A stretch of DNA of 64,000 nucleotides, taken from NCBI GenBank assembly GCA_035498405.1, contig DATKAE010000032.1:35195-99194 (forward strand). Direction: 5' to 3'. The notes below the pieces were generated by a model, which did not search any database, was not told the DNA's origin, and saw only the letters and a list, made by a program, of their open reading frames with translations. Positions 4,260-24,806 of the stretch are shown here, piece by piece; position 1 is the first letter of the stretch, and the number at the start of each line of letters is the position of its first letter. This DNA is from Thermoanaerobaculia bacterium (GTDB lineage: Bacteria; Acidobacteriota; Thermoanaerobaculia; UBA5066; Gp7-AA6). The position numbers and the translations under genes are program-made.

Positions 4260-5309
4260 ATGATCGTGGTCCCCCACCCCTTCGGACTCCACCGCAGCCT
4301 CGATCCGCCGGGAGTGCTGCCCCAATCGGCCCGGCGGCTCGACTCGACGCCGCGTGCTCTCGAGAACGAAATCGCCGTGGCCGTTCGCGCCCTGAACGTC
4401 GACTCCGCCTCCTTCCGGCAGATGCGCGAGACGGAGCGATCGACCGGCGAAACGGTCGAGCAGCAGGTGCTTCGCATCGTCGGCGAGCGCGGGAAGATGC
4501 AGAACCCGGTCACCGGCTCGGGCGGGATCTTCTTGGGCGAGGTCCGCGAGGTCGGCGCCCGGCATCCGGCCGCCGGAAACCTCCGGCCGGGAGAGCGGAT
4601 CGCGTCGCTCGTTTCGCTCTCCTTGACGCCGCTGTCCATCCAACGCATCAAGGCCGTGATCGCGTCCTCCGAGAGGATCGAGCTCGAGGGAACGGCGATT
4701 CTCTTCGAGCGTACCCTCTGGGCGAGGCTCCCCGGCGATTTTCGCGAGGAAGTCGCGCTCGCCGCTTTCGACGTGGCGGGGGCACCGGCCGCCGTTCTGC
4801 GCCGGGCGGGCGCGGACCAGACGGTCGTCGTGCTCGGAACGGGGAAGGCCGGCCTCCTCTGCCTGGCTGCGGCGCGCGAGGCCGTCGGGCCCGCGGGCAA
4901 GGTCTTCGCGGTCGACCCGTCGGAGGCCGCCTCGGCCCGGGCTCGGGGCGTCGGCGACGCGGACGCCGTCTTCACGATCGACGCCCGGGACCCCATCGCC
5001 GTTCATTCGGCGCTCCAGGAGGCGACGCGGAGCGGTCTCGCGGACTTGGTCGTCAATGCGGTCAACGCCCCGGGGACCGAGATCGCCAGTGTGCTCGCTT
5101 CGAAGGAGGAGGGAACCGTTCTCTTCTTCGGCATGGCGACCTCCTTCCAGGCCGCGGCCCTGGGCGCGGAAGGCCTGGCGCACCCGGCGACTCTTCTGAT
5201 CGGCAATGGCTACGTTCCGGGGCATGCCGAAGCGGTCCTGAACCTGCTCCGCCGCCGCCCGAGGCTGCGAACCGCCTTCGAGTCGCTCTGCTCGCTCGGT
5301 CCGCCTTGA
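4260..5309 (+). CDS. kdd: L-erythro-3,5-diaminohexanoate dehydrogenase (lysine fermentation pathway)
   Basis: 349 aa. N-terminal region (NEIAVAVRALNVDSASFRQ, MQNPVTGSGGIFLG) resembles the Kdd family. A central Rossmann motif VVVLGTGKAGLLCLAAA is present. It lies immediately upstream of kamDE-kal-kce. Confidence 0.6.
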   Translation: MIVVPHPFGLHRSLDPPGVLPQSARRLDSTPRALENEIAVAVRALNVDSASFRQMRETERSTGETVEQQVLRIVGERGKMQNPVTGSGGIFLGEVREVGARHPAAGNLRPGERIASLVSLSLTPLSIQRIKAVIASSERIELEGTAILFERTLWARLPGDFREEVALAAFDVAGAPAAVLRRAGADQTVVVLGTGKAGLLCLAAAREAVGPAGKVFAVDPSEAASARARGVGDADAVFTIDARDPIAVHSALQEATRSGLADLVVNAVNAPGTEIASVLASKEEGTVLFFGMATSFQAAALGAEGLAHPATLLIGNGYVPGHAEAVLNLLRRRPRLRTAFESLCSLGPP

Positions 5310-6238
5310 GCGAAGCGGCGCGCGCCCTGACGGAGCGGATCCTCGCCGCCCAGTCCCGACGGGTGGCGTTCCTCGGCCTCGCCAAGAACGCGGGAAAGAC
5401 GACGGCCCTCGTCGCGACGCTCGGCGAGCTGTCCCGCGTCGGGATCGCCGCGGGCGCGACGTCCGTCGGGCGCGACGGCGAGGACTTCGACGCCTTGACC
5501 GGCGAGCCCAAGCCTCGATTCCGCCTTTGGCCGGGCCAGCTCGTGGCCTCGGCCGAAAGCACGCTCGATGGGACGACCCTCTCCTTGACGGTGCTGGCGC
5601 GGCTTCCCTTTCCGACCCGCTTCGGGCCTGTCGCCGTCGCTCGCGTCGGAACGCCCGGTGAGCTCGAGGTGATGGGGCCAACGACGGCGTCGCAGACGGC
5701 GCAGACCGCCTCGGCCCTCGAGGCCGCGGGAGCCCGCGTGGTATTGCTCGACGGCGCCTTCGGCCGAAGGGCATTCGCTTCGGCGCGAGTGGCCGACGGA
5801 ATCGTCCTCGCGGTCGGAATGTCGGCCGGGCGGAGCCTGGAGAGTGTCCTCGAAAGGGCGCGCTTTGCCGCCGACTTGATTCAGTTGCCGACGAACTTCG
5901 CCGGCCGCCGCCGGACGATCGACGGAGCGCTGACCGACGAGCTGCTCCACGAGCTGCCACCGGAGCCCGGTGAAACTCTCGTGGCCCAGGATTTCGCCTC
6001 GGTCTTTCTCTCCGCGTCGGGGGTCCGAGACTTGAGGCAACGAGGCATCGGCCTGGCAGTCGAGCGACCGGCTCGCCTGATCGCGGTCACGGCGAACCCC
6101 TCGGCGCCGGGGCGCCCTCCCCTGCCCGCCAGGGCGTTCTTCGAGGCGCTCGCCGGCACTCTGCCGGGCATCGCGATCTTCGACCTGGAGGCGAGTCTGT
6201 CGAGCGTCGAGCCGCGAGCGGGAGAGAAGGACCGATAA
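5306..6238 (+). CDS. P-loop NTPase with deviant Walker A (CobQ/BioD/MinD-ParA-like nucleotide-binding fold), function unknown
   Basis: TTG start overlaps the kdd stop (TTGA). N-terminal VAFLGLAKNAGKTTALVATLGEL resembles KGGxGKTT-type deviant Walker A; a possible Walker B lies at RVVLLDGAF. Family assignment is tentative. Confidence 0.45.
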   Translation: MSEAARALTERILAAQSRRVAFLGLAKNAGKTTALVATLGELSRVGIAAGATSVGRDGEDFDALTGEPKPRFRLWPGQLVASAESTLDGTTLSLTVLARLPFPTRFGPVAVARVGTPGELEVMGPTTASQTAQTASALEAAGARVVLLDGAFGRRAFASARVADGIVLAVGMSAGRSLESVLERARFAADLIQLPTNFAGRRRTIDGALTDELLHELPPEPGETLVAQDFASVFLSASGVRDLRQRGIGLAVERPARLIAVTANPSAPGRPPLPARAFFEALAGTLPGIAIFDLEASLSSVEPRAGEKDR

Positions 6239-6261
6239 GGGCGCGACAACGGCCCCATCCG

Positions 6262-7206
6262 TTACCAGCTGACGCGCAACGCGGCCCCATCGGGAATGGG
6301 AACGACCTCGAGCGTCGTCTTCGGCGCGGCCGTCTCGACACCGGAAGTTTCCGCGCGGTGGCGCCGGACGAGAAAGCGCCCCGTCGCCGTGGCGAAGAGG
6401 GCCCCGGTGACGACGTCGCTGAAGAAGTGCGCCCTGTCGTTGATCCGGTCGCAGGCGACGACGAACGCGAGCCCGTAGGCGAGGGTAGGGATGATCCACC
6501 CGGGCGCGCGCATCGCGATCACGGAGGACACGGCGAAGGCCTGGGTCGCGTGGCCCGAGGTGAAGGAGTTGTGCCCGGAGAAGGGGTCGAAGATCGTTTC
6601 CCCATTGGACTGGTTCGGCCGATAGCGGCCGGCGACCGGCTTGATCACCAGGTTGGTGAAGGCTCCCGCGATGATCGCCGTCTCGAGCGCGTCTCGTCCC
6701 ATGTCCCGCACATCGCTGTCCCCGGCCACGAGGCCGATGGCCAGAAGCCCGCCGGCCACGGCAAATCCGCCACCCGCGCCGTACCAGGAGGTCCCGCTCG
6801 AGACGCTGTTGGTGAAGTTTGACCGGTGCTTCGCGAACAGGTCGTAGACGGCCTTATCGGACCAGAAGGCGCCCCCGATCATCGCGGCCGCGCCCACGGC
6901 GTGCCAGCCGTCTCGAGCGTCCCAGTGAAAGGGCGCCACCACGAGAGCGGCGGTGTCCGAGCCGTAGCGCTTCGCCTCGTTCCAGAGGGCATTGCCGACC
7001 ACCTTCAAGACCGGGGGCTTGGCCGGAGAGGCAGGGGCCTGCTCCGATTGGCCGGTTTCGACCGGGTCGAAAGCCGGGCAATCCTCTAGCTCGACGGCCG
7101 CCGCACGGCTGGAGACGAGGAGAAGCACGAGGAAAGTGAGAAATTCGGATCGGGCCCGAGGCCACCGCGCCGCGGACCACAAACCCAACCCGCTACTCGT
7201 TGGCAA
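6262..7206 (-). CDS. secreted PAP2-superfamily phosphatase (class A acid phosphatase-like)
   Basis: Signal-peptide-like N-terminus (FLTFLVLLLVSSRAAAV). All three PAP2 motifs are present: KPVAGRYRP (KX6RP), FTSGHAT (PSGH) and DRAHFFSDVVTGA (SRX5HX3D). Confidence 0.75.
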   Translation of the reverse strand: MPTSSGLGLWSAARWPRARSEFLTFLVLLLVSSRAAAVELEDCPAFDPVETGQSEQAPASPAKPPVLKVVGNALWNEAKRYGSDTAALVVAPFHWDARDGWHAVGAAAMIGGAFWSDKAVYDLFAKHRSNFTNSVSSGTSWYGAGGGFAVAGGLLAIGLVAGDSDVRDMGRDALETAIIAGAFTNLVIKPVAGRYRPNQSNGETIFDPFSGHNSFTSGHATQAFAVSSVIAMRAPGWIIPTLAYGLAFVVACDRINDRAHFFSDVVTGALFATATGRFLVRRHRAETSGVETAAPKTTLEVVPIPDGAALRVSW

Positions 7207-7282
7207 GACTCGCCCGCCTCGGAATACGCCAACCCGATCCGGTGTGCCTGTATTTCCGGGCCCCGGCTATACTGCCCCGTCG

Positions 7283-8842
7283 ATGCCCCCCAAGCTCGGT
7301 CTTTCGGCGGAGCGAATCGAGAACTGCCGGCGCCTCGCCGGGAAAGTCGCCGACGGTGTTCGAAGGGAGACGGAGCCGTTCACCACCGTTTCCACCGAAC
7401 GCGCGGTCTTGCGACTCCTGGGCGTCGATGGGGTGGATGAGCAGGACGTTCCGATCCCCAACCGAGTCGTCGAGTCCCTGCGGGCGACGGGCAAGCTCGC
7501 CCGCGGCGCCGCCGTGTGGCTGGGAAGCGCGTTGGCGGCCGGAGACTCGGGCCCGACAGAGGCCGCACGGCGGCTCTCGGATCCGTCCCAGGCGAAGGGA
7601 ATCTCGGAGCATCCGCGGTGGCGAGAGGCGCTCGCCCCACTGGTGGCTTCGACCCTCGGACGCATCCGGGGCAACGCCGCCGAACGCCGGCGGCGCCTGG
7701 CGGCGCACCCGCCGGACGAAGAGCCGCTTCTGTACGCCATCGTCGCCACGGGAAACATCTACGAAGACATCATTCAGGCCGAGGCGGCGGCCCGCGCCGG
7801 CGCGCAGTGCATCGCGGTCATCCGATCGACCGCGCAGTCGCTGCTCGACCACGTCCCTCACGGAGCGACCACCAGCGGCTTCGGCGGGACCTTCGCGACC
7901 CAGGAAAACTTTCGCCTCATGCGGGCGGCGCTCGATCGGATCGAGCCAGAGATCGGGCGCTCCGTGCGCCTGGTCAACTACTGCTCGGGACTGTGCATGC
8001 CCGAGATCGCGGCCATGGGGGCCTTCGAGCGCCTCGACATGATGTTGAACGATGCCCTCTACGGCATCATCTTCAGGGACATCAATCCCTTCCGCACGCT
8101 GATCGACCAGAACTTTTCCCGTCGGATCAACGCCGCGGCCGGTATCGTGATCAACACGGGGGAAGACAACTATCTGACGACCGCCGACGCCGTCGAGCAG
8201 GCGCCGGCGGTGCTCGCCTCTCAGTTCATCAACGAGCGTTTGGCCCTGGACGCGGGGCTCGAGCGCTGGCAAATCGGCCTCGGGCACGCCTTCGAGATCG
8301 ACCCGGAGCTCGAGGATGGCCTTCTCCTCGAGATCGCCCAGGCCGAGGCGGCTCGCGAGATTTTCACCGAGTCGCCGCTCAAGTACATGCCGCCGACCAA
8401 GCACATGACGGGCAACGTCCTGCGCGGCTACCAGCAGAACGCGCTCTTCGTGCTCACGTCCGTCGCGACGGGACAGTCGATCCACCTGCTCGGCATGCTG
8501 ACGGAGGCCCTCCACACGCCGCTGCTCTCGGACCGGTGGCTGGCGATCGACCAGGCGAAGACGATCCGCACGAACGCCCGGCACCTCTCCGAGGAGATCG
8601 CCTTCGCGCCGCACGGCCGGATCGTCCGCCGCGCGCACGAAGTCCTCGAGGGAGCCGAGGCGCTCCTCGAGCGAATCGCCGGCCAGGGGCTTTTCGACGC
8701 GCTCGCCTCGGGCGTCTTCGCCGACACGCGACGGCCGCGCGAGAGCGGACGCGGCCGGGAGGGCGTTGTCGAGCGGCATCCGGAGTATTCGAACCCCTTC
8801 CGGGAGGCTTGGGACCGCGAGCCCGCGGGGGCGGCCTCGTGA
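7283..8842 (+). CDS. kamD: lysine 5,6-aminomutase alpha subunit
   Basis: 519 aa from an in-frame ATG inside track ORF 6992..8842. It is collinear with KamD-family proteins (PF09043-like region ...[15 protein letters not shown]...[49 protein letters not shown]...). Size matches KamD (about 515-520 aa). Confidence 0.8.
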
Positions 8843-9606
8843 GCGCGCCGCGGCGCGACCCGTCTCGCCTGCGTCCGTACGGCGACAAATGGAACGACGG
8901 CGTCGTACAGGTTTCCTTCACGCTTCCCTTGCCGCACTCGGGCCTGGCGATCGAAGCCGCCAAGCGGTACGCCGGCAAGATGGGCATTCGCGACCCCTAC
9001 GTGACGCTCGCCCAGCCGGTCGCGCCCGAATTCACGTTCTTCATCGTGTACGGCAAGGCGGTCCACGAAGTCGACGCGACCGCGATCTCGGCCGAAGAGG
9101 CCGCGGCGCCCGATCTCGGCCGGGAAGAAATCGACGCGGAAATCGCCAAGAGGTTCGGCCGGCGTCTCGTCGTTCTCGGCTGCGCGCTCGAGTCGGACGC
9201 TCATACGGTGGGCATCGACGCGATTTTCAATCCGAAGGGGTTCGCCGGCGACTATGGGCTCGAGCGGTACGCGGGGTTCGATGCGCGAAACCTCGGCGCC
9301 CAGGTGCCGGTCGAGAGGCTCGTTCGCCTGGCCCGCGACGCGAAGGCCGATGCCATCTTGGTCTCGGCCACGGTCACGCAGAACGAGATTCACGTCAGGC
9401 ACCTGACGGATCTGGTCGACATGCTGGAGGCCGAGCGCCTGCGCGACGACCTGATCCTGGTGGCGGGCGGCGCGCGCCTCGACCACGCGCTCGCCAAGGA
9501 GCTCGGCTACGACGCGGGGTTCGGGCCGGGCACGACGCCGGGACGGGTCGCCGCCTTCCTACTCGAGGAGATGACCCGCCGCCGGGCGGGGCCGGGGCCG
9601 AGTTGA
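8839..9606 (+). CDS. kamE: lysine 5,6-aminomutase beta subunit (B12-binding)
   Basis: GTG start overlaps the kamD stop (GTGA). 255 aa. A B12-binding Rossmann-like region is present ([24 protein letters not shown]...[15 protein letters not shown]...[10 protein letters not shown]). Size and position are typical of KamE. Confidence 0.8.
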
Positions 9607-9995
9607 CGAACGAGAAGGTGCAGCTGCGGCTGCGCGTTGGGGCGGAGCAGGCCCACTACGGCGGCGGGCTCGTCGACGGCGCCTATCTGTTGAAGCTCTT
9701 CGGCGACGCGGCCACGGAGTTGCTCGTCCGGCACGACGGCGACGAGGGGCTCTTCCGGGCCTACTCATCGGTCGATTTTCTGGCGCCGGTCGTGGCGGGC
9801 GATTACCTGGAGGTCGAGGCGGAGCTTCTCCGGGTCGGGCGGACCTCGCGCGAGATGCGCTTCGAGGCGCGCAAGGTCATTACGCCCGCCGGCGGCGCCG
9901 CCTCCTCCTCGGTCCCTGTCGACCCGCCCGTCGTGGTCGCGCGGGCCACGGGCACCTGCGTGGTCCCGCTCGGACGCCAGAGGCGGAAAGCTTGA
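9603..9995 (+). CDS. kal: 3-aminobutyryl-CoA ammonia-lyase (hotdog fold)
   Basis: TTG start overlaps the kamE stop (TTGA). 130 aa. [68 protein letters not shown]...FEARKV matches the Kal family nearly residue by residue. Confidence 0.8.
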
Positions 9996-10816
9996 GCGAG
10001 GAGGTCGTCATCACGGTTGCCGGCGTGGGGGCGGAGGTCACCCGCACCCAACAACCGAGCCTGCCGCTGCTGCCGCCGGAGGTCGGGGAGGAGTACCGCC
10101 GGGCGCACGAGGCCGGTGCCGCGATCGGCCACATTCACGGACGAAGACCCGACGGCACGCCGACCCAGGATCTCGCGACCTTCCGCGACTATTCGCAGGC
10201 GATCCGGGCGCGCTGTCCGATCATCCAGCAATTCTCCACCGGCGGCGCGGTCGGCATGAGTGTGGAGGAGCGCATCGCCGCGCTGGAGCTCCGGCCGGAG
10301 ATGGCGACGCTCACGCTCGGAACCTGCAATTTCGGCGACGACGTCTTCGAGAACTCGCTCCCGACGATTCGGACGATCCTCGAGCGCATGCGCAAGTTCG
10401 GCATCACGCCGGAGCTCGAGATCTTCGACGATGGCATGCTCGCCACCGCCGACGTGCTCCTTGCGAAGGGGCTGCTCACCGTCCCGCTCCATTTCGACTT
10501 CGTGTTGGGCGTGCCGGGAGCCGCCGCCGCCACACCCGAGAACCTGCTTCACTTCGCCCGGTCGATTCCGGCCGGCTGCACGTGGACGGTCGCGGGAATC
10601 GGCCGGCGCCAGACCGCCATGGCCACTCTGGCCGTCGCCATGGGCGGGCACGTGCGGGTCGGCTTCGAGGACAACATCTACTACCGCCGGGGGGAGCTCG
10701 CGGACTCCAACGCCCGCTTCGTCGAGCGCGTGGCGCGGATTGCCCGGGAAGTGGGGCGCGAGCCGGCCACGGTCGAACAGGCCCGGCACATCCTGCATTT
10801 GCCCGCTGCCGCGTGA
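9992..10816 (+). CDS. kce: 3-keto-5-aminohexanoate cleavage enzyme (BKACE/DUF849)
   Basis: TTG start overlaps the kal stop (TTGA). 274 aa. BKACE hallmarks are present: ITVAGVGAE...[76 protein letters not shown]. Confidence 0.85.
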
Positions 10817-16845: not shown

Positions 16846-17868
16846 TTAGCGCTCGGCCTTGCCACGACCCGACCTCCCCGCCCGGGGGTGGAATCGGTCG
16901 TAAACCGTCTGCAGGTGCGCGCGCGACACCAGGGTGTAGATCTGGGTGGTCGAGATGTCCGTGTGCCCCAGCATCATCTGCAGGGACCGCAGGTCCGCCC
17001 CGTGCTGGAGCAGATGGGTCGCAAAGGAGTGCCGCAGCCGGTGCGGAGTCAGCCGGCCTCGCAACCCGACCCCGCGGCCATACCCCTCGATGAGCTGCCA
17101 GAGCCGCTGCCGCGTCATCGCCCGCCCTCGAACCGACAGAAAGAGCGCCGGGGCACCGCGTCGGTCGAGTCCCGGGCGAACCGTCTGCAGATACCTTCGC
17201 AGCCACCGCGCGGCGGACTGGCCAAAGGGCACGAGGCGCTCCTTGCCTCCCTTTCCCGTCACGCGCAGCATCCGCTCCTCCAGGTCCACCCTCTCGCGCG
17301 GCAGTTGGGCGATTTCCGATACCCGCAGGCCGGAGGCGTACAACAGCTCGAGCATCGCGCGGTCCCTCACTCCGAGAGGGCTCGAATCGTCCGGCGCCCG
17401 CAGGAGCGTCTCCACCTCCCTCTCGGTCAGCGGCTTGGGAAGGGCGAGCCCGGTTCGCGGACTGTGTAGGTGGGCCGTCGGATCTTCGGCGTGTTGCAGA
17501 TGCGCCGCCGCGAACGCATAGAAGCTGCGCAGGGCCGAGAGGGAGCGCGCCGCCGACCGGGACGAGATTCCGCGCGACCGTTGCTCACGCAAGTAACGGG
17601 AGAGTTCCTCGCGGGCGACACGCGAGGAAAGCCTTTGCCGCCGGAGCCATTGCCCGTATGCCGCCAGGTCGCGGCCGTAGGCGGCGACACTGGCCGGCGA
17701 CAGCCCGCGCTCGACCGAGAGGTGATCTAGATACGTCGGGAGCTCGCGATCGAGAAAATCGCCGCCCGTGCGGGACTCTTTCCCGCACCGCCCGGAGCGT
17801 CGGGGAGGGACGGACTCGCTACGCCCGGTAGGCAAGACGGGCCGATGGCGCGGCCGTCGCGTCGTCAA
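16846..17868 (-). CDS. xerD: tyrosine site-specific recombinase XerD/XerC-like (true start probably about 17811 or later)
   Basis: N-terminal SAM-like domain (FLDRELPTYLDHLSVERGLSPASVAAYGRDL). Catalytic domain carries R..HxxR..Y (LRHSFATHLLQHGADLRSLQMMLGHTDISTTQIYTLV). Confidence 0.75.
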   Translation of the reverse strand: MTTRRPRHRPVLPTGRSESVPPRRSGRCGKESRTGGDFLDRELPTYLDHLSVERGLSPASVAAYGRDLAAYGQWLRRQRLSSRVAREELSRYLREQRSRGISSRSAARSLSALRSFYAFAAAHLQHAEDPTAHLHSPRTGLALPKPLTEREVETLLRAPDDSSPLGVRDRAMLELLYASGLRVSEIAQLPRERVDLEERMLRVTGKGGKERLVPFGQSAARWLRRYLQTVRPGLDRRGAPALFLSVRGRAMTRQRLWQLIEGYGRGVGLRGRLTPHRLRHSFATHLLQHGADLRSLQMMLGHTDISTTQIYTLVSRAHLQTVYDRFHPRAGRSGRGKAER

Positions 17869-19166
17869 TGGGCCGCTTCGGCCGGCGCGAGGCTCGCGAC
17901 GACGGCGAGGATCTCCTCATCGGACAAGACCTGGTCACTCTGCTTGGCTCTCTGGAAGACGGCGTTGATCAGTTCCGGACGGGCCTCGATTCCGTGCGTC
18001 TCGAGCCAGCACTGCACGTTCGAAACGCCGCTCATCGGCCCCACCTCGATCGTCTGCCGCCGCCCGACCATCGCCGCAGGCACTCCCGAATAGACTCGGT
18101 CGGCCAACCAGTCGTCGCCCTTCTTGCGCGCCTTGATGATCGCCGCGGCGTGAACTCCCGTCCCCGTGCGAAAGGCGTCGCGGCCCACGATGGGATAGTT
18201 GTCGGGGATCCGCACGCCCGTGGCCTCCGAGACTCGGGTGCAGTACTCGCTCAACTTCGTCAGGTCGCGATCGATCCATCCGAGCAGCTGCAAGTTCACC
18301 AGCAGCTGATCCATCGGAGTGTTGCCCACCCGTTCGCCGATCCCGAGGGCGCAACCGTGCACGCGGTGGGCACCGGCCTCGAGGGCCCACAGCGCGTTGG
18401 TCACGCCGAGGCCGCGATCCTGATGCCCGTGCCAGTCGATCCGGACCTCCGGACCCACCTCGTCCACGACGCCCGAGACGAAGCGGATGACGTTGCGAAC
18501 CCCGTTGGGTGTGGCGTGGCCCACGGTGTCGCAGACACAGACCCGGCTGGCTCCGGCACGAATCGCCACCGTGTAAAGGGCCCGGATGTGGTCGGGATGG
18601 GCGCGGGTCGTGTCTTCCGTGACGTACATCACGGGCAAGCCCTCGCGCACCGCCATCGAAACGGCATCTTCGGTCAGGCGCAGCAAACGATCGAGGTTCC
18701 AATCCTCAGCGTACTGCCGAATCGGGGAGGACCCGATGAAACAGGCCACCTCGACCGGGATGCCCACGCGCTGCGAGATCTCGACGATCGGAAGGATGTC
18801 CGCCGCGACCGTCCGCGCCGCGCAGTTCGGCCGGATCTTCATCCGAGACGTCTGGATCTCGCGAACCAGCCTCTCGACGGTCGAGACCACATGGGGCCCC
18901 GCCCCCGGCAGGCCGACGTCTGCCGACTCGATTCCGAGCGACTCCATCAGGTGCAGGATGGCGACTTTCTGGTCGATCGAGGGACTGCGCACCGAGGGGG
19001 ATTGGAGACCGTCGCGCAGGGTCTCGTCGTCGAGCTCGACCTTGCCACGGGCCGGAGAGACCGCTCCGCCGGCTCGGTTCCAGTCGTAGATGAGTTCGGA
19101 TTCGGATGGGTGCACGCCCATTTTCGCCTTCGGCATCAGTTTATGCCGGCGTCGGACGCCGATCAA
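17865..19166 (-). CDS. 2-isopropylmalate synthase-family (LeuA type-2/actinobacterial-yeast-like catalytic core) protein lacking the C-terminal regulatory domain
   Basis: HMGL-like TIM barrel: ELDDETLRDGLQSPS, HGHQDRGLGVTNALWALEAGAHRVHGCALGIGERVGNTPMDQLL. About 420-433 aa. Track start at 19166 is TTG; alternative ATGs lie at 19136 and 19121. Confidence 0.6.
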   Translation of the reverse strand: MIGVRRRHKLMPKAKMGVHPSESELIYDWNRAGGAVSPARGKVELDDETLRDGLQSPSVRSPSIDQKVAILHLMESLGIESADVGLPGAGPHVVSTVERLVREIQTSRMKIRPNCAARTVAADILPIVEISQRVGIPVEVACFIGSSPIRQYAEDWNLDRLLRLTEDAVSMAVREGLPVMYVTEDTTRAHPDHIRALYTVAIRAGASRVCVCDTVGHATPNGVRNVIRFVSGVVDEVGPEVRIDWHGHQDRGLGVTNALWALEAGAHRVHGCALGIGERVGNTPMDQLLVNLQLLGWIDRDLTKLSEYCTRVSEATGVRIPDNYPIVGRDAFRTGTGVHAAAIIKARKKGDDWLADRVYSGVPAAMVGRRQTIEVGPMSGVSNVQCWLETHGIEARPELINAVFQRAKQSDQVLSDEEILAVVASLAPAEAAH

Positions 19167-19179
19167 CCGAAACGCGGTC

Positions 19180-20346
19180 CTAGTTGCTGCCGCCCCCGAG
19201 AAAAAGCTCGGCCGTGATCGCGAACGTCAGCTCCGGCGAGCCGAGAAAGTTGCTCAGGCCCCCGCCGAAGTCGCCGTCCCGTTTGACCGCCAGCGTGCGC
19301 GAGGGTCCGCCATGCGTGTCGACTAGGGTCATCGTCTCATTGCCCCAGGCCATTCGGAGGGAGGCCCGAACCCGCAGCCTTTCGGCGAAGGCGTGCCGAT
19401 ACGACAGGTCCCAGAAGATCTCCTTCACACTCGAGTCTGGCCGAAACCCGGCGTCGTACGCGACCGACTCCGTGCCCAGGACGGCCAACGGCGAGAAGGG
19501 AAGCTCTTCGCGGTCGTAGGTCATTGCGAGAACCAGGTCGTTTCGAGGCCAGGAGTAGCCGACCGACCACCGGAGGGCCGCCAGGGAAGCATCCGCCTTC
19601 AGCTGATTCTGTTGGAAGTCCGGCAAGGAGGCCTGCTGAACGCTGAGGGAGCCGGCCACCCGCTCGGCGTGCAGGACGAGCGTCCACCGATCGCGGCGCC
19701 AACGGGCCTCGAGCTCCGCGCCGAAGAGATTTCCCGATCCGTCGTTGGAGGATCCGGCCTCGTCGACGCCGCCTCTCGCGTTGACGTAACGGAAGGCCGC
19801 GGAGGCCTCGAAGTTCGGCCAGCGATGCCTCCAACCCGCCGCGAAGTCGAGCCGCTCGGCGCTGATGGTGCGCTGCTCGCTGATCGAGTGATCCGAGAGG
19901 CCGACGTTGACCGTGTCCGTGGCAATGTCGTCTCGCCTCTCGATGGCGACTTCGACCGAGTCGCGCTGCCCGATGGGAATCCGTCCGATCCCCGCGAAGT
20001 TCTCGTAGCGGCCCGTTCCCGTGGCCGTGATCTGCGGATTGTCGGTATTCGCGCGCCGCGCCTGCTCGTCGTGGGAGGGAGCGAGGGCCAGAAGGACCTG
20101 CCATTGCCACGCGGGCGTTCCGGCTCCGAGATCCCCCGCGGGCTGGCGATTGTTTCCCATCCCGACGAGGACGAACTTGGGCGTGACGTCCGAAACGTCC
20201 TTTTGGGCGGTGGCCGAATCGTACTTCCGAGCCAGAGTGGAGTAGGAGAAGCCCAGCTCCCCCGCGAGGCCCGGGCGCAAGGGCATGTCCACGCCGAAAA
20301 GCACGCTCGCGCAGTAAACGCAGGCACCGATGAGCTCGATTCCCAT
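19180..20346 (-). CDS. putative outer-membrane beta-barrel protein, paralog 1 (uncharacterised family)
   Basis: 388 aa from an internal ATG. C-terminal two-thirds is built of alternating amphipathic beta-strand-like segments (WTLVLHAERV, LRWSVGYSW, LVLAMTYD, LRVRASLRMAW, LTFAITAELF). N-terminus MGIELIGACVYCASVLFGV is a paralog of the next gene. Confidence 0.5.
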   Translation of the reverse strand: MGIELIGACVYCASVLFGVDMPLRPGLAGELGFSYSTLARKYDSATAQKDVSDVTPKFVLVGMGNNRQPAGDLGAGTPAWQWQVLLALAPSHDEQARRANTDNPQITATGTGRYENFAGIGRIPIGQRDSVEVAIERRDDIATDTVNVGLSDHSISEQRTISAERLDFAAGWRHRWPNFEASAAFRYVNARGGVDEAGSSNDGSGNLFGAELEARWRRDRWTLVLHAERVAGSLSVQQASLPDFQQNQLKADASLAALRWSVGYSWPRNDLVLAMTYDREELPFSPLAVLGTESVAYDAGFRPDSSVKEIFWDLSYRHAFAERLRVRASLRMAWGNETMTLVDTHGGPSRTLAVKRDGDFGGGLSNFLGSPELTFAITAELFLGGGSN

Positions 20347-20401
20347 CTCGATCTGCCTCCTCTGCCGCGGAAAAAAGGGGACGCAATCTCGTTCGAGCGG
20401 G

Positions 20402-21574
20402 TCAGTGTCCTCCGCCGATCGCGAAATCGGCGCCGACGTAGAGAGTGAACTCGGGAAACCCCAGGTTCTCGGAGAAGCCGCCGCCGAATCGGCCGCGCCG
20501 GTCGACATCCAGGGTGATCGGGGGCCGGTCGCCCAGCGCGTCCGTCAGCGTCACCTTCTCGTGCCCCGTCGCCATGCGCATGCCGATGCGGGCGCGGATC
20601 GAGGGCGTAAACGTGTATCGGACCGTCAGGTCGCCATAGAACTCGCGGTTGTTCGAGTCCGGATGGTATCCGCCGTCGAACGCCACCGTCTCGACACCGA
20701 GCACGGCCAGCGATACGAACGGGAGCCGCTGGCGGTCGAAGGTGGCCGTCAGGAAGAGGTCCGTCCGCGGCCAGGAGTACCCGAGCCCGAACCGGAGGGC
20801 CTGGAGCGTGGCGTTCTGAGAGGATTTGCGCGCCTGGAAGGCCGGAAAGCTCTCCTCGAGCACGTCGATCGAGCCCGTGAGCCACTGGAAATCGAGCGTC
20901 GTCGTCCAGCCCCCCGTCCGATATCGGCCCTCGAGTCCGCCTCCGAAGATCCCACCCGAGCTATTCATGTAGGCGCCGGCGGTCGCGTTATAGCCGGTCA
21001 CCTTGGCGTACTGAACTCTGGCCGCCACTTCCAGATCCTTCCAGCGCTGCCGCCAGCCCAGGGCTCCGTCCGCCCGCTCGGCGGTCAGGTTGCGCTGCTC
21101 GCTGATCTGATGTTCTTGTCCACCGATGTTGAGCAGGTCGGTCGCCTTCTCGGTTCGGCGATCGAGGACCGCTTCGAGAGAGCCCTGGCCTCCGATCGGA
21201 AAGCGCCCGAGCAGCGCGAAGTTCTCGTAGCGTCCCGTACCGTCCGTCTCGATCGGCTCCTGCGTCGAGGTGGCCGTACGGATCTGGTTGTCGTGGGAGG
21301 GCGCGAGGGCGACGCGCACCCGCCACTCGAAGGCCGGGGTTCCGGCACCGAGTCCGACGGGAGGGGGCCGTGCTTCGCCCACGCCGACGAGGAGGAACTT
21401 GGGCGTGACCTCGGAGATATCGGCGCTCTCGCCGGAGTTCGCCGGCGGGAGAAGACGGTCCAGTGTCGCGTAAGAGAAGCCGATCTCGGTCCCTAGGCCA
21501 TTTCGCGGGGGAAGCTCCGCACCGAGCAGGTATGGGGCGCAGAAGATGCAGGCGCTGACGAGATCGATCCCCAT
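20402..21574 (-). CDS. putative outer-membrane beta-barrel protein, paralog 2 (tandem duplicate of 19180..20346)
   Basis: 390 aa. Collinear with paralog 1 across shared blocks: MGIDLVSACIFCA, TPKF.LVG.G, LAPSHD, GTGRYENFA, ISEQR, beta-strand-rich C-terminus ending FAIGGGH. An in-frame stop 3 codons upstream fixes the ATG start. Confidence 0.5.
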   Translation of the reverse strand: MGIDLVSACIFCAPYLLGAELPPRNGLGTEIGFSYATLDRLLPPANSGESADISEVTPKFLLVGVGEARPPPVGLGAGTPAFEWRVRVALAPSHDNQIRTATSTQEPIETDGTGRYENFALLGRFPIGGQGSLEAVLDRRTEKATDLLNIGGQEHQISEQRNLTAERADGALGWRQRWKDLEVAARVQYAKVTGYNATAGAYMNSSGGIFGGGLEGRYRTGGWTTTLDFQWLTGSIDVLEESFPAFQARKSSQNATLQALRFGLGYSWPRTDLFLTATFDRQRLPFVSLAVLGVETVAFDGGYHPDSNNREFYGDLTVRYTFTPSIRARIGMRMATGHEKVTLTDALGDRPPITLDVDRRGRFGGGFSENLGFPEFTLYVGADFAIGGGH

Positions 21575-21580
21575 GCGGAG

Positions 21581-22363
21581 TCAGCGTCCGGTGAAGCGGG
21601 GGGCGCGCTTTTCCAGGAACGCCGTCATGCCTTCCTTCATGTCCTCGGTTGCCGCGCAGAGGCCGAAGAGCGTCGCCTCCAGCACGAGCCCCTCGGCGGT
21701 CGGGACCTCGATGCCCCGGCGGATCGCCTCCATCGCATACCGGCAGGCGGCCGGCCCGTTGGCGGCGATCTTTCGCGCGAGCTCCTTGGCTCCTGCGAGC
21801 GCTTGACCGGCCGGAACCACGCGGTTCACGAGCCCGATGCGGTGCGCCTCCGAGGCCGTCACGCCTTTCTCGGCCGTGAGAATCAGCTCCATCGCGCGCG
21901 CCACGCCAACCAGCCGCGCGAGGCGCTGGGTTCCGCCGTAACCCGGAAGGATTCCCAGTGAGGTTTCCGGCAGGCCCATCTTCGCGTTCTCGGAAGCGAC
22001 TCGCAGGCAGCAGGCCAGCGCGAGCTCGAGCCCCCCGCCATAGGCATAGCCGTTGATCGCCGCAATCGTGGGGACACTCATATCCGCGAGCCGATCGAGC
22101 ACGGCTTGCCCGCGCAGAGCGTGCTCGCGGCCCTGGACCGGCGTCAGTTTCGCGAGCTCGCCGATGTCGGCGCCCGCGATGAAGGCCTTTTCCCCGGCGC
22201 CGGTGACCACGAGACAACGCAGGGACGGGTCCTCGGCCGCCTCGGCGAACGCCTCGTCTAAGGCCGCGATGACCTCCGCATTCAAGGCGTTCAGCTTCTC
22301 GGGACGATCCACCGTGACCGTGCGAACTCCCTCCTCCGTCTCGATTCTGACGTTCGGGCTCAT
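21581..22363 (-). CDS. crt: enoyl-CoA hydratase / 3-hydroxybutyryl-CoA dehydratase (crotonase)
   Basis: Crotonase-fold motifs: VVTGAGEKAFIAGADI, AAINGYAYGGGLELALACCLRVA, MGLPETSLGILPGYGGTQRL. Confidence 0.85.
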   Translation of the reverse strand: MSPNVRIETEEGVRTVTVDRPEKLNALNAEVIAALDEAFAEAAEDPSLRCLVVTGAGEKAFIAGADIGELAKLTPVQGREHALRGQAVLDRLADMSVPTIAAINGYAYGGGLELALACCLRVASENAKMGLPETSLGILPGYGGTQRLARLVGVARAMELILTAEKGVTASEAHRIGLVNRVVPAGQALAGAKELARKIAANGPAACRYAMEAIRRGIEVPTAEGLVLEATLFGLCAATEDMKEGMTAFLEKRAPRFTGR

Positions 22364-23220
22364 GCCTTCTCCCCGTATTCGTAGAAGCCGCGGCCCGACT
22401 TTCGACCGTGCCGTCCGGCCAAGACCATGCGCTTCAAGAGCGGCGGCGGGGCGAAGCGCTTCTCCCGATACTCGTTGAACATGATCTCGGCGATCGCGTA
22501 GGTGGTGTCGAGCCCGACGAAGTCGAGCAGTTTCAGCGGACCCATCGGGTGGCCGCAGCCGAGCTCCATGCCGCGGTCGATGTCCTCCTTCGTCCCGACA
22601 CCCTCCTCGAGCGCCCTCACGGCGTCGAGCAGGTAGGGAACCAGAAGGCGGTTCACGATGAATCCCGAGTTGTCGCCGGCGCGGATCGGCTCCTTGCCGA
22701 GGGCGCGCGCGAAGTCGGCGACCGAATCGACGGTTTCGTCGGACGTCGCGATCGTTCGGACGACTTCCACCAGCTTCATGACGGGGACGGGATTGAAGAA
22801 GTGAAGTCCCGCGAAACGTTCCGGCCGTTTCGTGGCGGCGGAGAGCTCCGTGATGGTGAGCGAGGACGTGTTGGAGCAGAAGATCGTCTCCGGCTTGCAG
22901 AGCCGGTCGAGCTCCGCGAAAGTCTTCTTCTTGACGTCGAGATTCTCGACGATGGCCTCGATGACGATCTCGCAGTCGGAAAGATCGCCGAGCGTGGTTG
23001 TGGGCGTGACCCGTCTCCGAATCGCCTCCGCTTCTTCGGAGGTCATCTTCTTGCGCTCGACGGCGCGGGAGAGCGAAGCGTCGATGCGCCCCATCCCCTT
23101 GGAGGCGAGATCCTCCGAGACTTCACGAACCGCCGTCGGAAACCCGGCGCGCGCCGCGACCTCGGCGATCCCGGAGCCCATCAGGCCCGCTCCCAACACT
23201 CCGACCTTATGAATCTTCAT
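22360..23220 (-). CDS. hbd: 3-hydroxybutyryl-CoA dehydrogenase
   Basis: N-terminal Rossmann motif KVGVLGAGLMGSGIA; 3HCDH signature NTSSL, GLHFFNPVPVMKLVEV; C-terminal domain GMELGCGHPMGPLKLLDFVGLD. ATGA overlap with crt. Confidence 0.85.
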   Translation of the reverse strand: MKIHKVGVLGAGLMGSGIAEVAARAGFPTAVREVSEDLASKGMGRIDASLSRAVERKKMTSEEAEAIRRRVTPTTTLGDLSDCEIVIEAIVENLDVKKKTFAELDRLCKPETIFCSNTSSLTITELSAATKRPERFAGLHFFNPVPVMKLVEVVRTIATSDETVDSVADFARALGKEPIRAGDNSGFIVNRLLVPYLLDAVRALEEGVGTKEDIDRGMELGCGHPMGPLKLLDFVGLDTTYAIAEIMFNEYREKRFAPPPLLKRMVLAGRHGRKSGRGFYEYGEKA

Positions 23221-23500
23221 CGCTCGGCGGCTCCTCCTCGTCTTGGCCTCGCCCCGTCTGCCCCGGTGGCGACCCCGCGCCGCAGAACCGCTCGAGCGTC
23301 AGATCGCGGGAGAAGCCGGGGCCCGCCAGTGCCTGAAGGGGCGTATTCGGGGCAACGATAATCCAGCGATTGCCGATCCAGTGCGCGAGCGTCTCCCGGA
23401 CCAGGGAACCGTCGTTCAGGATGGCCAGAACGCCGTTCAAGTCGGCAGACCCGTGTGCGCGCAGGTCCTGGAGGAAGTCGGCCACCGCCGCCGCGCGCAC
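23207..23500 (-). CDS. small ORF of unknown function between thiolase and hbd (possible gene remnant)
   Basis: 97-codon ORF with a GTG start and GC-rich third positions, but no recognisable SD sequence. It ends in an acidic low-complexity tail overlapping the hbd start by 14 nt. It is the only open frame in the 325-nt thl-hbd spacer. Confidence 0.25.
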   Translation of the reverse strand: MRAAAVADFLQDLRAHGSADLNGVLAILNDGSLVRETLAHWIGNRWIIVAPNTPLQALAGPGFSRDLTLERFCGAGSPPGQTGRGQDEEEPPSDEDS

Positions 23501-23545
23501 GGGAAAGGAGAGGATCCGCTCCGTCCAGTTCAGCGGGCGCTCCGC

Positions 23546-24727
23546 TTACGATGGGGACTCGATGACGACGGCGATCCCCTGGCCGCCTCCGATGCAGGCT
23601 CCGGCCAGGCCGTAGCGCAACCTCCGGCGCCGCAGCTCCTTGGCGAGCGTCAGGGTGCATCGCGTACCGCTCGCTGCGAGGGGATGTCCCAAAGCGATCG
23701 CGCCGCCGTTGACGTTGAGCTTGTCGCGGTCGATCCCGAGCTCTCGCACGACCCCCAGGATCTGACCCGCAAAGGCTTCGTTGATCTCCCAGAGGTCAAT
23801 CTGGTCTATCTTGATCCCCGCCCGTTCGAGCGCCGCTCGGGCCGCCGGTGCGGGTCCCAGGCCCATCAGCTCCGGATCGCAGCCCACGACGGCCCAGGAG
23901 ACGAGCCGACACAGAGGATCGGCGCCCCGCGTCCGGGCGCGCGCCGCTGATGTCACGACGACAGCCGCCGCGCCATCGACGATACCGGAGGCGTTTCCCG
24001 CCGTGACCTGGCCGTCTTTGCCGAAGGACGGAGGCAGAAGGGCCAGCGCCTCGAGCGTCGTCTCCGGGCGGAGGTGGTCGTCCTTCGCGACAACCACGAT
24101 CTTGCGGCCCGAGCGAACCTCGACGGGCACGACCTCCTCCGACAACCGGCAGGAATCCCAGGCGGCCGCCGCCCGGCGCTGGGAGGAAAGCGCGTACTCG
24201 TCCTGCTCCTCCCGCGTGATGCCGTATTTCTTGGCCACGCGATCGGAGGTTTGCGCCATGTAGAGCCCCGTGTAGGAGTCGAGCAGGGCGACCATCAGCG
24301 AGTCCTCGAGCTGCCCTTGCCCCAGCCGGAAGCCCTTGCGGGCACCCCGGATCACGTGAGGCGCCTGCGACATGTTCTCCATGCCTCCCGCCAAGACCGT
24401 CTGCGCCTCTCCGAGCAAGATCCGATGCGCGCCCTGCACGATCGACTCGAAGCCCGACCCGCAGAGGCGGTTGACGGTCAGGGCCGGAACTTCCTTCGGA
24501 ACACCGCTCTTCAAGGCCACGTGTCGAGCCCCGTAGATCGCATCGCCGGAGGTCTGCAGGGCATTTCCGAAGATGACGTGGTCGATCTCGGCCGGCTCCG
24601 TGCCGCTTCGGTCCAGGGCCGCCTTGGACGCGTGAACTCCGAGATCGATTGCGGAGACCTCGGAGAAGGCCCCGTTGTAGTCGGCCATCGGCGTCCGAGC
24701 GCCGTCCAACAGCACGATGTCTTCCAT
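23546..24727 (-). CDS. acetyl-CoA acetyltransferase (thiolase II)
   Basis: 393 aa from internal ATG (MEDIVLLDGARTPM...). Thiolase signatures: NRLCGSG, GGMENMS, NVNGGAIALGHPLAASG, CIGGGQG. Confidence 0.85.
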   Translation of the reverse strand: MEDIVLLDGARTPMADYNGAFSEVSAIDLGVHASKAALDRSGTEPAEIDHVIFGNALQTSGDAIYGARHVALKSGVPKEVPALTVNRLCGSGFESIVQGAHRILLGEAQTVLAGGMENMSQAPHVIRGARKGFRLGQGQLEDSLMVALLDSYTGLYMAQTSDRVAKKYGITREEQDEYALSSQRRAAAAWDSCRLSEEVVPVEVRSGRKIVVVAKDDHLRPETTLEALALLPPSFGKDGQVTAGNASGIVDGAAAVVVTSAARARTRGADPLCRLVSWAVVGCDPELMGLGPAPAARAALERAGIKIDQIDLWEINEAFAGQILGVVRELGIDRDKLNVNGGAIALGHPLAASGTRCTLTLAKELRRRRLRYGLAGACIGGGQGIAVVIESPS

Positions 24728-24806
24728 GAGTCCGCGAACTATAGCAGCTTGAACCCGCGGGAATAGGCCTTGGGGGCTCGGAAGCGGAGGGCAACCCACC
24801 GAAGGA

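Follow-up and report, generated by a model that had tools for sequence, protein, structure and literature searches.

Introduction

FadL and TodX are outer-membrane channels for long-chain fatty acids and hydrophobic aromatics, and channels of this type are often encoded in the catabolic operons that they serve. CymA is a cyclodextrin channel, and the N-termini of both CymA and FadL act as a gate of the pore. MtrB has ~26 strands and sheathes a decahaem cytochrome; an ordinary signal peptide precedes its CxxC motif (C42/C45), which is part of the mature protein. By the accepted view, outer-membrane barrels reach the envelope by a single route, on a signal made up of basic n-region, h-region and cleavage site or on a lipobox, and it is the signal peptide that as a rule evolves fastest within a protein. 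Here we describe two tandem genes, paralogs A and B, in a 64,000-nucleotide (nt) stretch of contig DATKAE010000032.1 (assembly GCA_035498405.1) from a Thermoanaerobaculia bacterium of the Acidobacteriota, a major and poorly cultured soil phylum. This whole stretch, with a G+C content of ~68%, is called the window below. The two products are probably outer-membrane barrels and share a short N-terminal leader with two invariant cysteines. There is nothing unusual about the barrel as such; the leader is genuinely anomalous.

Results

An undescribed family confined to one lineage

Paralogs A and B are tandem paralogues of an undescribed, Thermoanaerobaculia-specific family. Their 48% identity over 389 amino acids (aa; BLASTP, E 2e-131) is not a chance likeness, and both begin MGI[DE]L[VI][SG]AC[IV][FY]CA. 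Neither protein matched Pfam or NCBIfam at E 0.1 or, by phmmer or profile, any PDB sequence at E 10, and 24 family members searched against Pfam at E 10 returned stray matches only, such as OMP_b-brl at 0.007 in one of them. Paralog A is 100% identical to a database protein (P0001), the NCBI entry 'hypothetical protein VMR54_03140' of a Thermoanaerobaculia metagenome-assembled genome (MAG). A word-indexed search collected 285 proteins, all 'hypothetical' and nearly all 386-392 aa long, and wherever a source was named it was a Thermoanaerobaculia or Acidobacteriota MAG. When 1.84 billion representatives were searched exhaustively with a profile, only 91 clusters came up, with no bridge to another family; the remotest full-length members, ~25-28% identical, were again from Thermoanaerobaculia or Acidobacteria where named. 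Consistent with this distribution, a scan of 185,579 species genomes gave 80 loci, all in Thermoanaerobaculia/Acidobacteriota MAGs. The fold class is already known, as described below; the family and its invariant CxxC leader are undescribed in Pfam, NCBIfam and the searchable literature.

Besides C9 and C12, the columns invariant throughout the family (numbered with B as the reference) comprise twelve polar residues that are kept at ~25% identity, Y35, R40, T57, H94, R115, E117, R124, S132, E134, R161, R175 and E295, together with the glycines G76, G112, G114, G173, G211 and G234.

The position of the start codon is fixed by upstream in-frame stops. Only 6 nt separate the TGA of crt (21581-21583) from the ATG of A, and this TGA is in frame, three codons 5' of A, which makes a longer N-terminus of A impossible. 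Other genomes have in-frame stops 2-5 codons 5' of the start (both copies of locus L001, L005 and L009), and among 84 distinct gene copies 72 have ATG, GTG or TTG at this codon, which rules out a longer N-terminus. The open reading frame (ORF) of B does extend back to 20508; the extension overlaps A by 107 nt and contains no signal-like sequence. Spacers of 55 nt and 13 nt follow A and B, the latter measured from the stop of B to the first possible start of the HMGL/LeuA-like gene (TTG 19166). The junction of crt and A recurs in L001 as TGA, two codons and an in-frame ATG. Elsewhere the crt-barrel junction has a 10-nt spacer (L004) or a TAG stop (L005), and read-through or a selenocysteine fusion of crt and A was rejected as unlikely because the in-frame TGA is not conserved. 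A 525-aa fusion of an ECH domain and the barrel is deposited as P0023 (L003:8001-9578). Most block genes on that contig are fragmented, and the entry looks like a frameshift-ridden assembly artefact and not a real fusion. The earlier note on this DNA had described two duplicate genes of 388 and 390 aa without a recognisable family, spaced 6 nt from crt and 13 nt from a LeuA-type gene, and both starting with the MGI[DE]L sequence given above, all of which was confirmed here. The stop that it placed three codons upstream of one paralog is the crt TGA, and it precedes A, the paralog with the higher coordinates.

A predicted 14-stranded barrel

AlphaFold2 models were obtained for A with a mean predicted local distance difference test (pLDDT) of 86.3 and a predicted template modelling score (pTM) of 0.84 (64 sequences), and for B with 88.8 and 0.87 (120 sequences). 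Both are pure up-and-down beta meanders of ~20-residue strands, in which turns of 1-3 residues alternate with longer loops. Strand 1 begins at residue 26 and leaves ~25 residues ahead of it. Strands were counted from the DSSP strings. An apparent 15th strand is strand 14 split by a ~15-residue excursion, and since distant members lack this excursion, the barrel is most simply read as having 14 strands.

Searches of the PDB with Foldseek returned outer-membrane barrels only, down to E 1e-5, for both paralogs. For A the best match was CymA (E 7e-9) followed by FadL (3e-8), for B it was FadL (7.6e-9) followed by CymA, and TodX, OmpG and NalP were among the further matches. With identities of ~10%, this likeness is one of fold class and not of demonstrated homology. 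The sequences themselves are consistent with such a barrel. Hydrophobic and polar residues alternate along the strands, and within the strands it is the polar columns that vary less (1.10 bit, versus 1.34 bit for the hydrophobic ones; rho 0.24, p 1e-4), which would be expected of a membrane barrel with a lined lumen. The pattern G-x-x-Phi-x-Phi (Phi, hydrophobic) occurs within the last 15 residues of 115 of 117 members, and the last strand carries a nearly invariant G-A-D-F-x-I, which is followed by 4-6 more residues and so does not lie at the very C-terminus.

The models thus agree with the suggestion of membrane barrels in the earlier note, and FadL, which it had put forward for structural comparison, is among the two best matches. 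Its further proposal of a FadL-like function by a different fold does not fit, since the predicted fold class is the same as that of FadL and it is the FadL-defining features that are absent.

A conserved, acidic N-terminal leader

The first residues of A and B (Table 1) share a layout of an acidic start, ~13 hydrophobic residues that include C9-x-x-C12, and a Gly/Pro breaker at position 14. Both the extent of the hydrophobic stretch and the pattern of breaker and small residues would fit a signal peptide, and a signal-peptidase-I-type site is possible after L-L-G18. Residues 1-20 have pLDDT values of 41-57 in both models, which suggests that the leader is not docked in the barrel.

Mean column entropy rose from 0.41 bit in residues 2-14 to 1.35 bit in residues 15-25 and was 1.25 bit in the barrel. 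Within the close clade, L5, C9 and C12 are invariant in 74 distinct genes, and D/E4, V6, S7, A8, F11 and A13 are each conserved in at least 89% of them. C9 and C12 are the sole cysteines in A, in B and in 77 of 117 members, and they remain invariant down to relatives of ~25% identity. Leaders of the distant clade are 5-7 residues longer, for example MDLVSRLSLLGSLCLLCGS and MPIELVHHLGAYGVLCLLCAG, and retain [DE]-L-V near the start and C-Phi-Phi-C; the V-S-A-C of the close clade is changed there to G-x-[LVF]-C. Both cysteines are selected for more than hydrophobicity.

Known cysteine motifs were compared with the leader. The V-S-A-C of the close clade fits the lipobox L-[AS]-[GA]-C of lipoproteins. 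However, C9 comes after no more than 8 residues, a basic n-region is lacking, and the lipobox-like residues are lost in the distant clade while the CxxC stays; a neighbouring lipoprotein, MNKLLLPLLVILGAAGC, shows the canonical form. We therefore reject a lipoprotein and with it the lipobox-like reading of the earlier note, which was right that this short N-terminus carries a CxxC, found here to be invariant, and probably right that it is neither a canonical Sec nor a canonical lipoprotein signal. A c-type haem site (CxxCH) was rejected as well, position 13 being Ala in 70 of 74 genes, Gly in the other 4, and never His. A sorting tag shared with other proteins was likewise rejected, because a regular-expression scan of ~1.1 Mb of DNA found the leader motif in family members only.

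The conservation acts mainly on the peptide, since synonymous codons vary where the amino acids do not: all four Gly codons, GAT and GAC, and TGC and TGT are used in the leader. Synonymous variation over codons 4-13 (21536-21565 in A) fell slightly short of that in the remaining codons (82 genes; mean deficit 0.19 bit, p 0.05), and codon use is skewed at Val6 (GTC in 75 of 77) and Ser7 (AGC in 66 of 69). A minor constraint on the 5' mRNA, on top of that on the peptide, is possible. An RNA or DNA element as the source of the 5' conservation was rejected, the synonymous deficit being only marginal and the Gly, Asp and Cys codons being variable.

Genomic context differs between lineages

About 50 of the 80 species loci have the family gene in the block found in the window, which consists of a beta-lactamase-fold gene, thl, hbd, crt, the family gene, an HMGL-like gene and xerD, and which continues into SLT, M20 peptidase and M28 peptidase genes. 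As functionally unrelated genes (xerD, SLT, the peptidases) are part of it, this acyl block is best regarded as inherited synteny.

None of the acyl-block genes is present at ~27 other loci (within L058-L089), in which the family gene lies in a hopanoid cluster, between dxs-ispH-hpnL on one side and genes for squalene-synthase-like, hpnG-like, hpnA, hpnH and squalene-hopene cyclase (shc) products on the other (for example L073:5066-7164 and L066:6001-8882). The hpnA, hpnH and shc products scored above the NCBIfam cut-offs. Here the family gene is on the strand opposite to the hpn genes and always 60-100 nt 3' of a gene for a 285-aa protein with two ExxH motifs, which had no Pfam or NCBIfam match and a weak similarity to MiaE (8fhb, E 0.012). 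In some hopanoid loci a B12 radical-SAM gene (HpnR/HpnJ-like, below the cut-off) stands 3' of the family gene.

Other surroundings were found in smaller groups. A few loci, such as L092:8258-11786, have an S-adenosylmethionine (SAM) methyltransferase gene upstream, together with a convergent PMT_2/ArnT-like gene and a MacB-type transporter. Distant members adjoin genes for PagL, OMP_b-brl and DUF3187 (L006:1662-5350, with PagL in L006-8) or for DUF5777, and others adjoin M16 peptidase genes and one for a 5'-nucleotidase that starts with a signal peptide. At L095:7023-9149 a PAP2 phosphatase gene is directly upstream on the same strand. Collectively, these envelope-lipid neighbours are suggestive of an outer-membrane lipid theme, one that is not consistent across lineages.

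In a neighbour-joining tree the acyl-context and hopanoid-context genes formed two separate clades, and no MAG in the list had a locus of both kinds. The differing locations therefore reflect mostly lineage and not specialised paralogues. Two copies of the family gene were found at only 6 species loci and in the window. In the same tree, which is rough, A and B fell in one sub-clade, where B grouped with the single copy of L022 and A with L001 and L012-15; this implies a duplication that predates these species and later losses. Two-copy loci are L065:262-2854, L041, L049, L057, L076 and L085. Five acyl-context genomes have an extra, deeper-branching copy upstream of the main copy, and one hopanoid-context genome has two adjacent copies. 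Tandem duplication has occurred in this family more than once.

Neighbouring genes in the window

The pair lies in a co-directional series of a beta-lactamase-fold gene, thiolase, hbd, crt, A, B, HMGL-like and xerD genes (Table 1), with gaps from hbd to xerD of -4, 6, 55, 13 and -4 nt. A terminator scan from hbd to the HMGL-like gene found no terminator-like site between genes and one weak 5-pair stem inside the HMGL-like ORF; overall, the promoter and terminator scan gave little information. The HMGL/LeuA-like protein is without the LeuA regulatory domain and is 79-89% identical in most species of the lineage, and it scored far under the cut-off of every isopropylmalate, homocitrate and citramalate synthase model of NCBIfam (best 212 bits versus 517). 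The thiolase probably starts later within its ORF than the coordinates indicate. The 325-nt gap between thiolase and hbd (23221-23545) contains small minus-strand ORFs, such as one of 97 aa at 23207-23500, and at the same position in L004 and L005 a gene of 99-112 aa is called, with no Pfam match. Genes of lysine-fermentation type are found on the plus strand at 4260-10816, and given their proximity, thiolase, hbd and crt probably serve amino-acid fermentation rather than fatty-acid beta-oxidation.

Table 1. Positions in the window of the barrel pair, its leaders and the genes around it.
Feature	Position	Strand	Description
Paralog A	20402..21574	-	390 aa, CxxC leader and predicted beta-barrel; from ORF, AlphaFold2 and Foldseek
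Paralog B	19180..20346	-	388 aa, tandem duplicate of A; all family-invariant residues present
Leader of A	21521..21574	-	residues 1-18, MGIDLVSACIFCAPYLLG; pLDDT about 50
Leader of B	20293..20346	-	residues 1-18, MGIELIGACVYCASVLFG; pLDDT 41-57
GGAGG ribosome-binding site	20356..20360	-	9 nt 5' of the ATG of B (20346); read from sequence
crt (enoyl-CoA hydratase)	21581..22363	-	Pfam ECH_1, 4e-67
hbd (3-hydroxyacyl-CoA dehydrogenase)	22360..23220	-	Pfam 3HCDH_N and 3HCDH; 4-nt overlap with crt
Thiolase	23546..24799	-	Pfam Thiolase_N and Thiolase_C; 325 nt 5' of hbd
HMGL-like, LeuA/homocitrate-synthase type	17865..19166	-	Pfam HMGL-like, 3e-43; directly 3' of B
xerD-type recombinase	16846..17868	-	Pfam Phage_integrase and SAM-like domain; 4-nt overlap with the end of the HMGL-like gene
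Zinc-dependent alcohol dehydrogenase (ADH)-type dehydrogenase	4260-5309	+	lysine-fermentation-type set
Aminomutase subunit	7516-9606	+	OAM_dimer and B12-binding domains
4HBT thioesterase-domain protein	8766-9995	+	
BKACE beta-keto-acid cleavage enzyme	9992-10816	+	

Discussion

We put the probability that A and B are outer-membrane barrels at about three in four. The location is suggested by the predicted fold, the motif of the last strand, the diderm host and the envelope genes found next to distant members. A fuller account, in which the proteins are channel-type barrels exported by an atypical, cleaved Sec leader and serve as a lineage-wide component of the envelope, has in our judgement about an even chance of being correct. 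In this account each protein would be a monomeric barrel of 14 long antiparallel strands, joined by short turns at one end and by longer loops at the other. Its outside would be hydrophobic, and conserved Arg, Glu, His, Ser and Tyr, from the inferred orientation of their side chains, would line the lumen. Residues 1-18 would be an atypical export leader, with an acidic start in place of the basic n-region, that takes the protein through Sec and is then removed near residue 18. The barrel would be inserted by the beta-barrel assembly machinery (BAM), which may use the conserved G-A-D-F-x-I last strand. By analogy with FadL/TodX, CymA and OmpG, it would then serve as a channel through which a small solute, amphipathic or hydrophobic, passes passively and selectively. 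It would belong to the envelope across the lineage and not to the thiolase-hbd-crt pathway; in this genome the gene has been duplicated, and the pair is probably co-transcribed with hbd-crt and the HMGL-like gene.

Several observations weigh against this account. Residues 2-14 are the most conserved stretch of the protein, which is unusual for a cleaved leader. Lys and Arg are absent from the first 8 residues of 116 of 117 members, and all 117 have Asp or Glu there. Secreted proteins encoded nearby in the same organisms carry the canonical features, be it a basic n-region, an AxA site or a lipobox, with MLIRRLALAAFLVAAAPSAHG as a textbook signal beside the lipoprotein given above. An aromatic C-terminal residue was found in only 4 of 117 members. 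Finally, the number of invariant polar residues would also suit an enzyme.

A different role for the same barrel would be that of a handler of outer-membrane lipids, either a device for the transfer or insertion of lipid A or hopanoids or an enzyme of the PagL, PagP, LpxR or OMPLA kind, with the invariant His, Ser, Glu and Arg as an active or lipid-binding site. Envelope-lipid neighbours do recur (PagL, PAP2, PMT_2/ArnT-like with MacB, and the hopanoid cluster in ~27 species), and the twelve invariant polar residues would be accounted for. The outer-membrane partners for hopanoid transport are an open question, and the microsynteny screen near shc relied on annotated protein domains (bioRxiv 10.1101/2025.07.29.667474). 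However, in the hopanoid cluster the family gene is on the opposite strand to the hpn genes, the contexts vary by lineage with none of them family-wide, and envelope genes often cluster by chance. Judged by strand position, H94 would lie at the opposite end of the barrel from S132 and E134, with no obvious catalytic triad, and the known outer-membrane enzymes have 8-12 strands. On balance we consider a lipid handler unlikely.

The conservation of the leader could also mean that the N-terminal peptide is retained, as a plug or gate in or under the barrel, with the CxxC as a thiol switch, a metal ligand or a disulfide link to a partner, in line with what has been proposed for the N-terminal CxxC of MtrB. 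The low entropy of residues 2-14 relative to the barrel would be explained, as would the persistence of C9 and C12, the only cysteines of most members, while the lipobox-like residues around them change. The pores of CymA and FadL are gated by N-terminal segments, and the N-terminal CxxC of MtrB offers a loose precedent. Against a retained peptide, there is no known export route for a barrel without a separate signal peptide ahead of it, and AlphaFold2 leaves the peptide undocked. It is also uniformly hydrophobic, like an h-region, and not amphipathic, and the linker that joins it to strand 1 is of variable length in the distant clade. We regard retention as doubtful. The boldest reading of the same data is that the invariant M-x-x-[DE]-L-V...[SA]-x-C-Phi-Phi-C-[AG] is a signal of a new kind by which outer-membrane barrels are matured or targeted. 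It might be read during export by means of its cysteines, through thiol chemistry, lipidation or a processing enzyme of its own, or it might stay in place as a gate dependent on thiols or metal. This is tentative, and we hold it to be improbable. If it were true, a whole bacterial class would make a conserved outer-membrane protein outside the Sec n-h-c and lipobox rules. A weaker corollary would make the family the outer-membrane partner that is still missing for the trafficking of hopanoids or lipid A in these bacteria.

The earlier note had suggested a dedicated channel for uptake or export of the pathway substrate. Such a channel would carry what thiolase, hbd and crt consume or make, for instance short or medium acyl chains or butyrate-type acids. 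The tight co-directional packing with crt and the HMGL-like gene, the retention of this arrangement in ~50 species, the place of FadL among the top structural matches and the lysine-fermentation genes nearby are all in line with this proposal. However, the same block also carries xerD, the beta-lactamase-fold gene, SLT and peptidases, and crt, the family gene and the HMGL-like gene stay together in one lineage only; sister lineages have the family without acyl-CoA genes, in the hopanoid cluster or in the ArnT-like, PagL, PAP2 and M16 contexts. The FadL hatch domain and NPA motif are absent, and short-chain acids normally need no dedicated outer-membrane channel. A pathway-dedicated role is thus quite improbable. 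Least likely of all, and very improbable, is a barrel that is not exported and binds hydrophobic intermediates in the cytoplasm or at the inner membrane, tethered by its hydrophobic and possibly thiol-modified N-terminus: the lack of a canonical signal and the constant position of the gene 3' of one for a predicted cytoplasmic or inner-membrane enzyme (crt, the ExxH di-iron-like protein, the SAM methyltransferase or PAP2) would suit it, but the structural neighbours are all outer-membrane barrels, 14 strands make too wide a barrel for its core to be packed as in a soluble protein (we know of no soluble precedent), the polar positions are conserved and a BAM-type motif is present in the last strand.

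With this family, ~90 clusters of 'hypothetical proteins' receive a name and a predicted fold, and it marks a candidate outer-membrane component beside hopanoid genes. What sets the family apart is a class-wide barrel of a single family in which an acidic, cysteine-bearing leader is the slowest-evolving part. Should its processing or its use prove unusual, this leader would indicate a hitherto unknown step of envelope biogenesis in Acidobacteriota; if it is merely an odd Sec signal, the finding is a new taxon-restricted, porin-like family.

Comparison with known systems

The barrel was compared with four described systems. In MtrB, the porin of the MtrCAB electron conduit of Shewanella, a conserved N-terminal CxxC is likewise found on an outer-membrane barrel. 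Mutation of Cys42 in this motif affects ferric-iron reduction, and the C45A variant behaves as wild type (PMC12175506). An MtrB/PioB-type conduit was rejected for the present family, which is predicted to have 14 strands versus ~26 or more and which has acyl-CoA, hopanoid and envelope neighbours, with no cytochrome genes among the annotated ones, whereas such conduits are encoded beside multihaem cytochromes. OmpG-type porins are monomers of 14 strands and appear as secondary Foldseek matches, with template modelling (TM) scores of only 0.37-0.39 by query; OmpG is without a conserved N-terminal motif or comparable invariant lumen residues.

FadL and TodX (Toluene_X, PF03349) are closer, being monomeric 14-stranded outer-membrane barrels of similar size (E 8e-9 to 3e-8, TM ~0.5-0.55). 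However, identity is ~10%, and Toluene_X was not matched by A and B at E 0.1 or by the 24 members at E 10. The ~40-residue N-terminal hatch of FadL is missing here, where strand 1 already begins at residue 26, and no NPA motif was found in the first 80 residues of any of the 117 members. FadL also has a canonical signal peptide. Membership of the FadL family was rejected on the missing profile match, hatch domain and NPA motif. The best superposition was obtained with CymA of Klebsiella oxytoca (PDB 4v3g, 4d5b), with TM scores of 0.57-0.59 by query and 0.66-0.71 by target. CymA, too, is a 14-stranded monomer, and its short N-terminal segment is a functionally important mobile plug; this plug, however, lacks a CxxC and comes after a signal peptide that is cleaved in the normal way, the identity is 10-13%, and the proteins described here are ~70 residues longer, with ~20-residue strands. 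By analogy with these systems, A and B most likely work like a 14-stranded monomeric channel and are not members of the FadL family.

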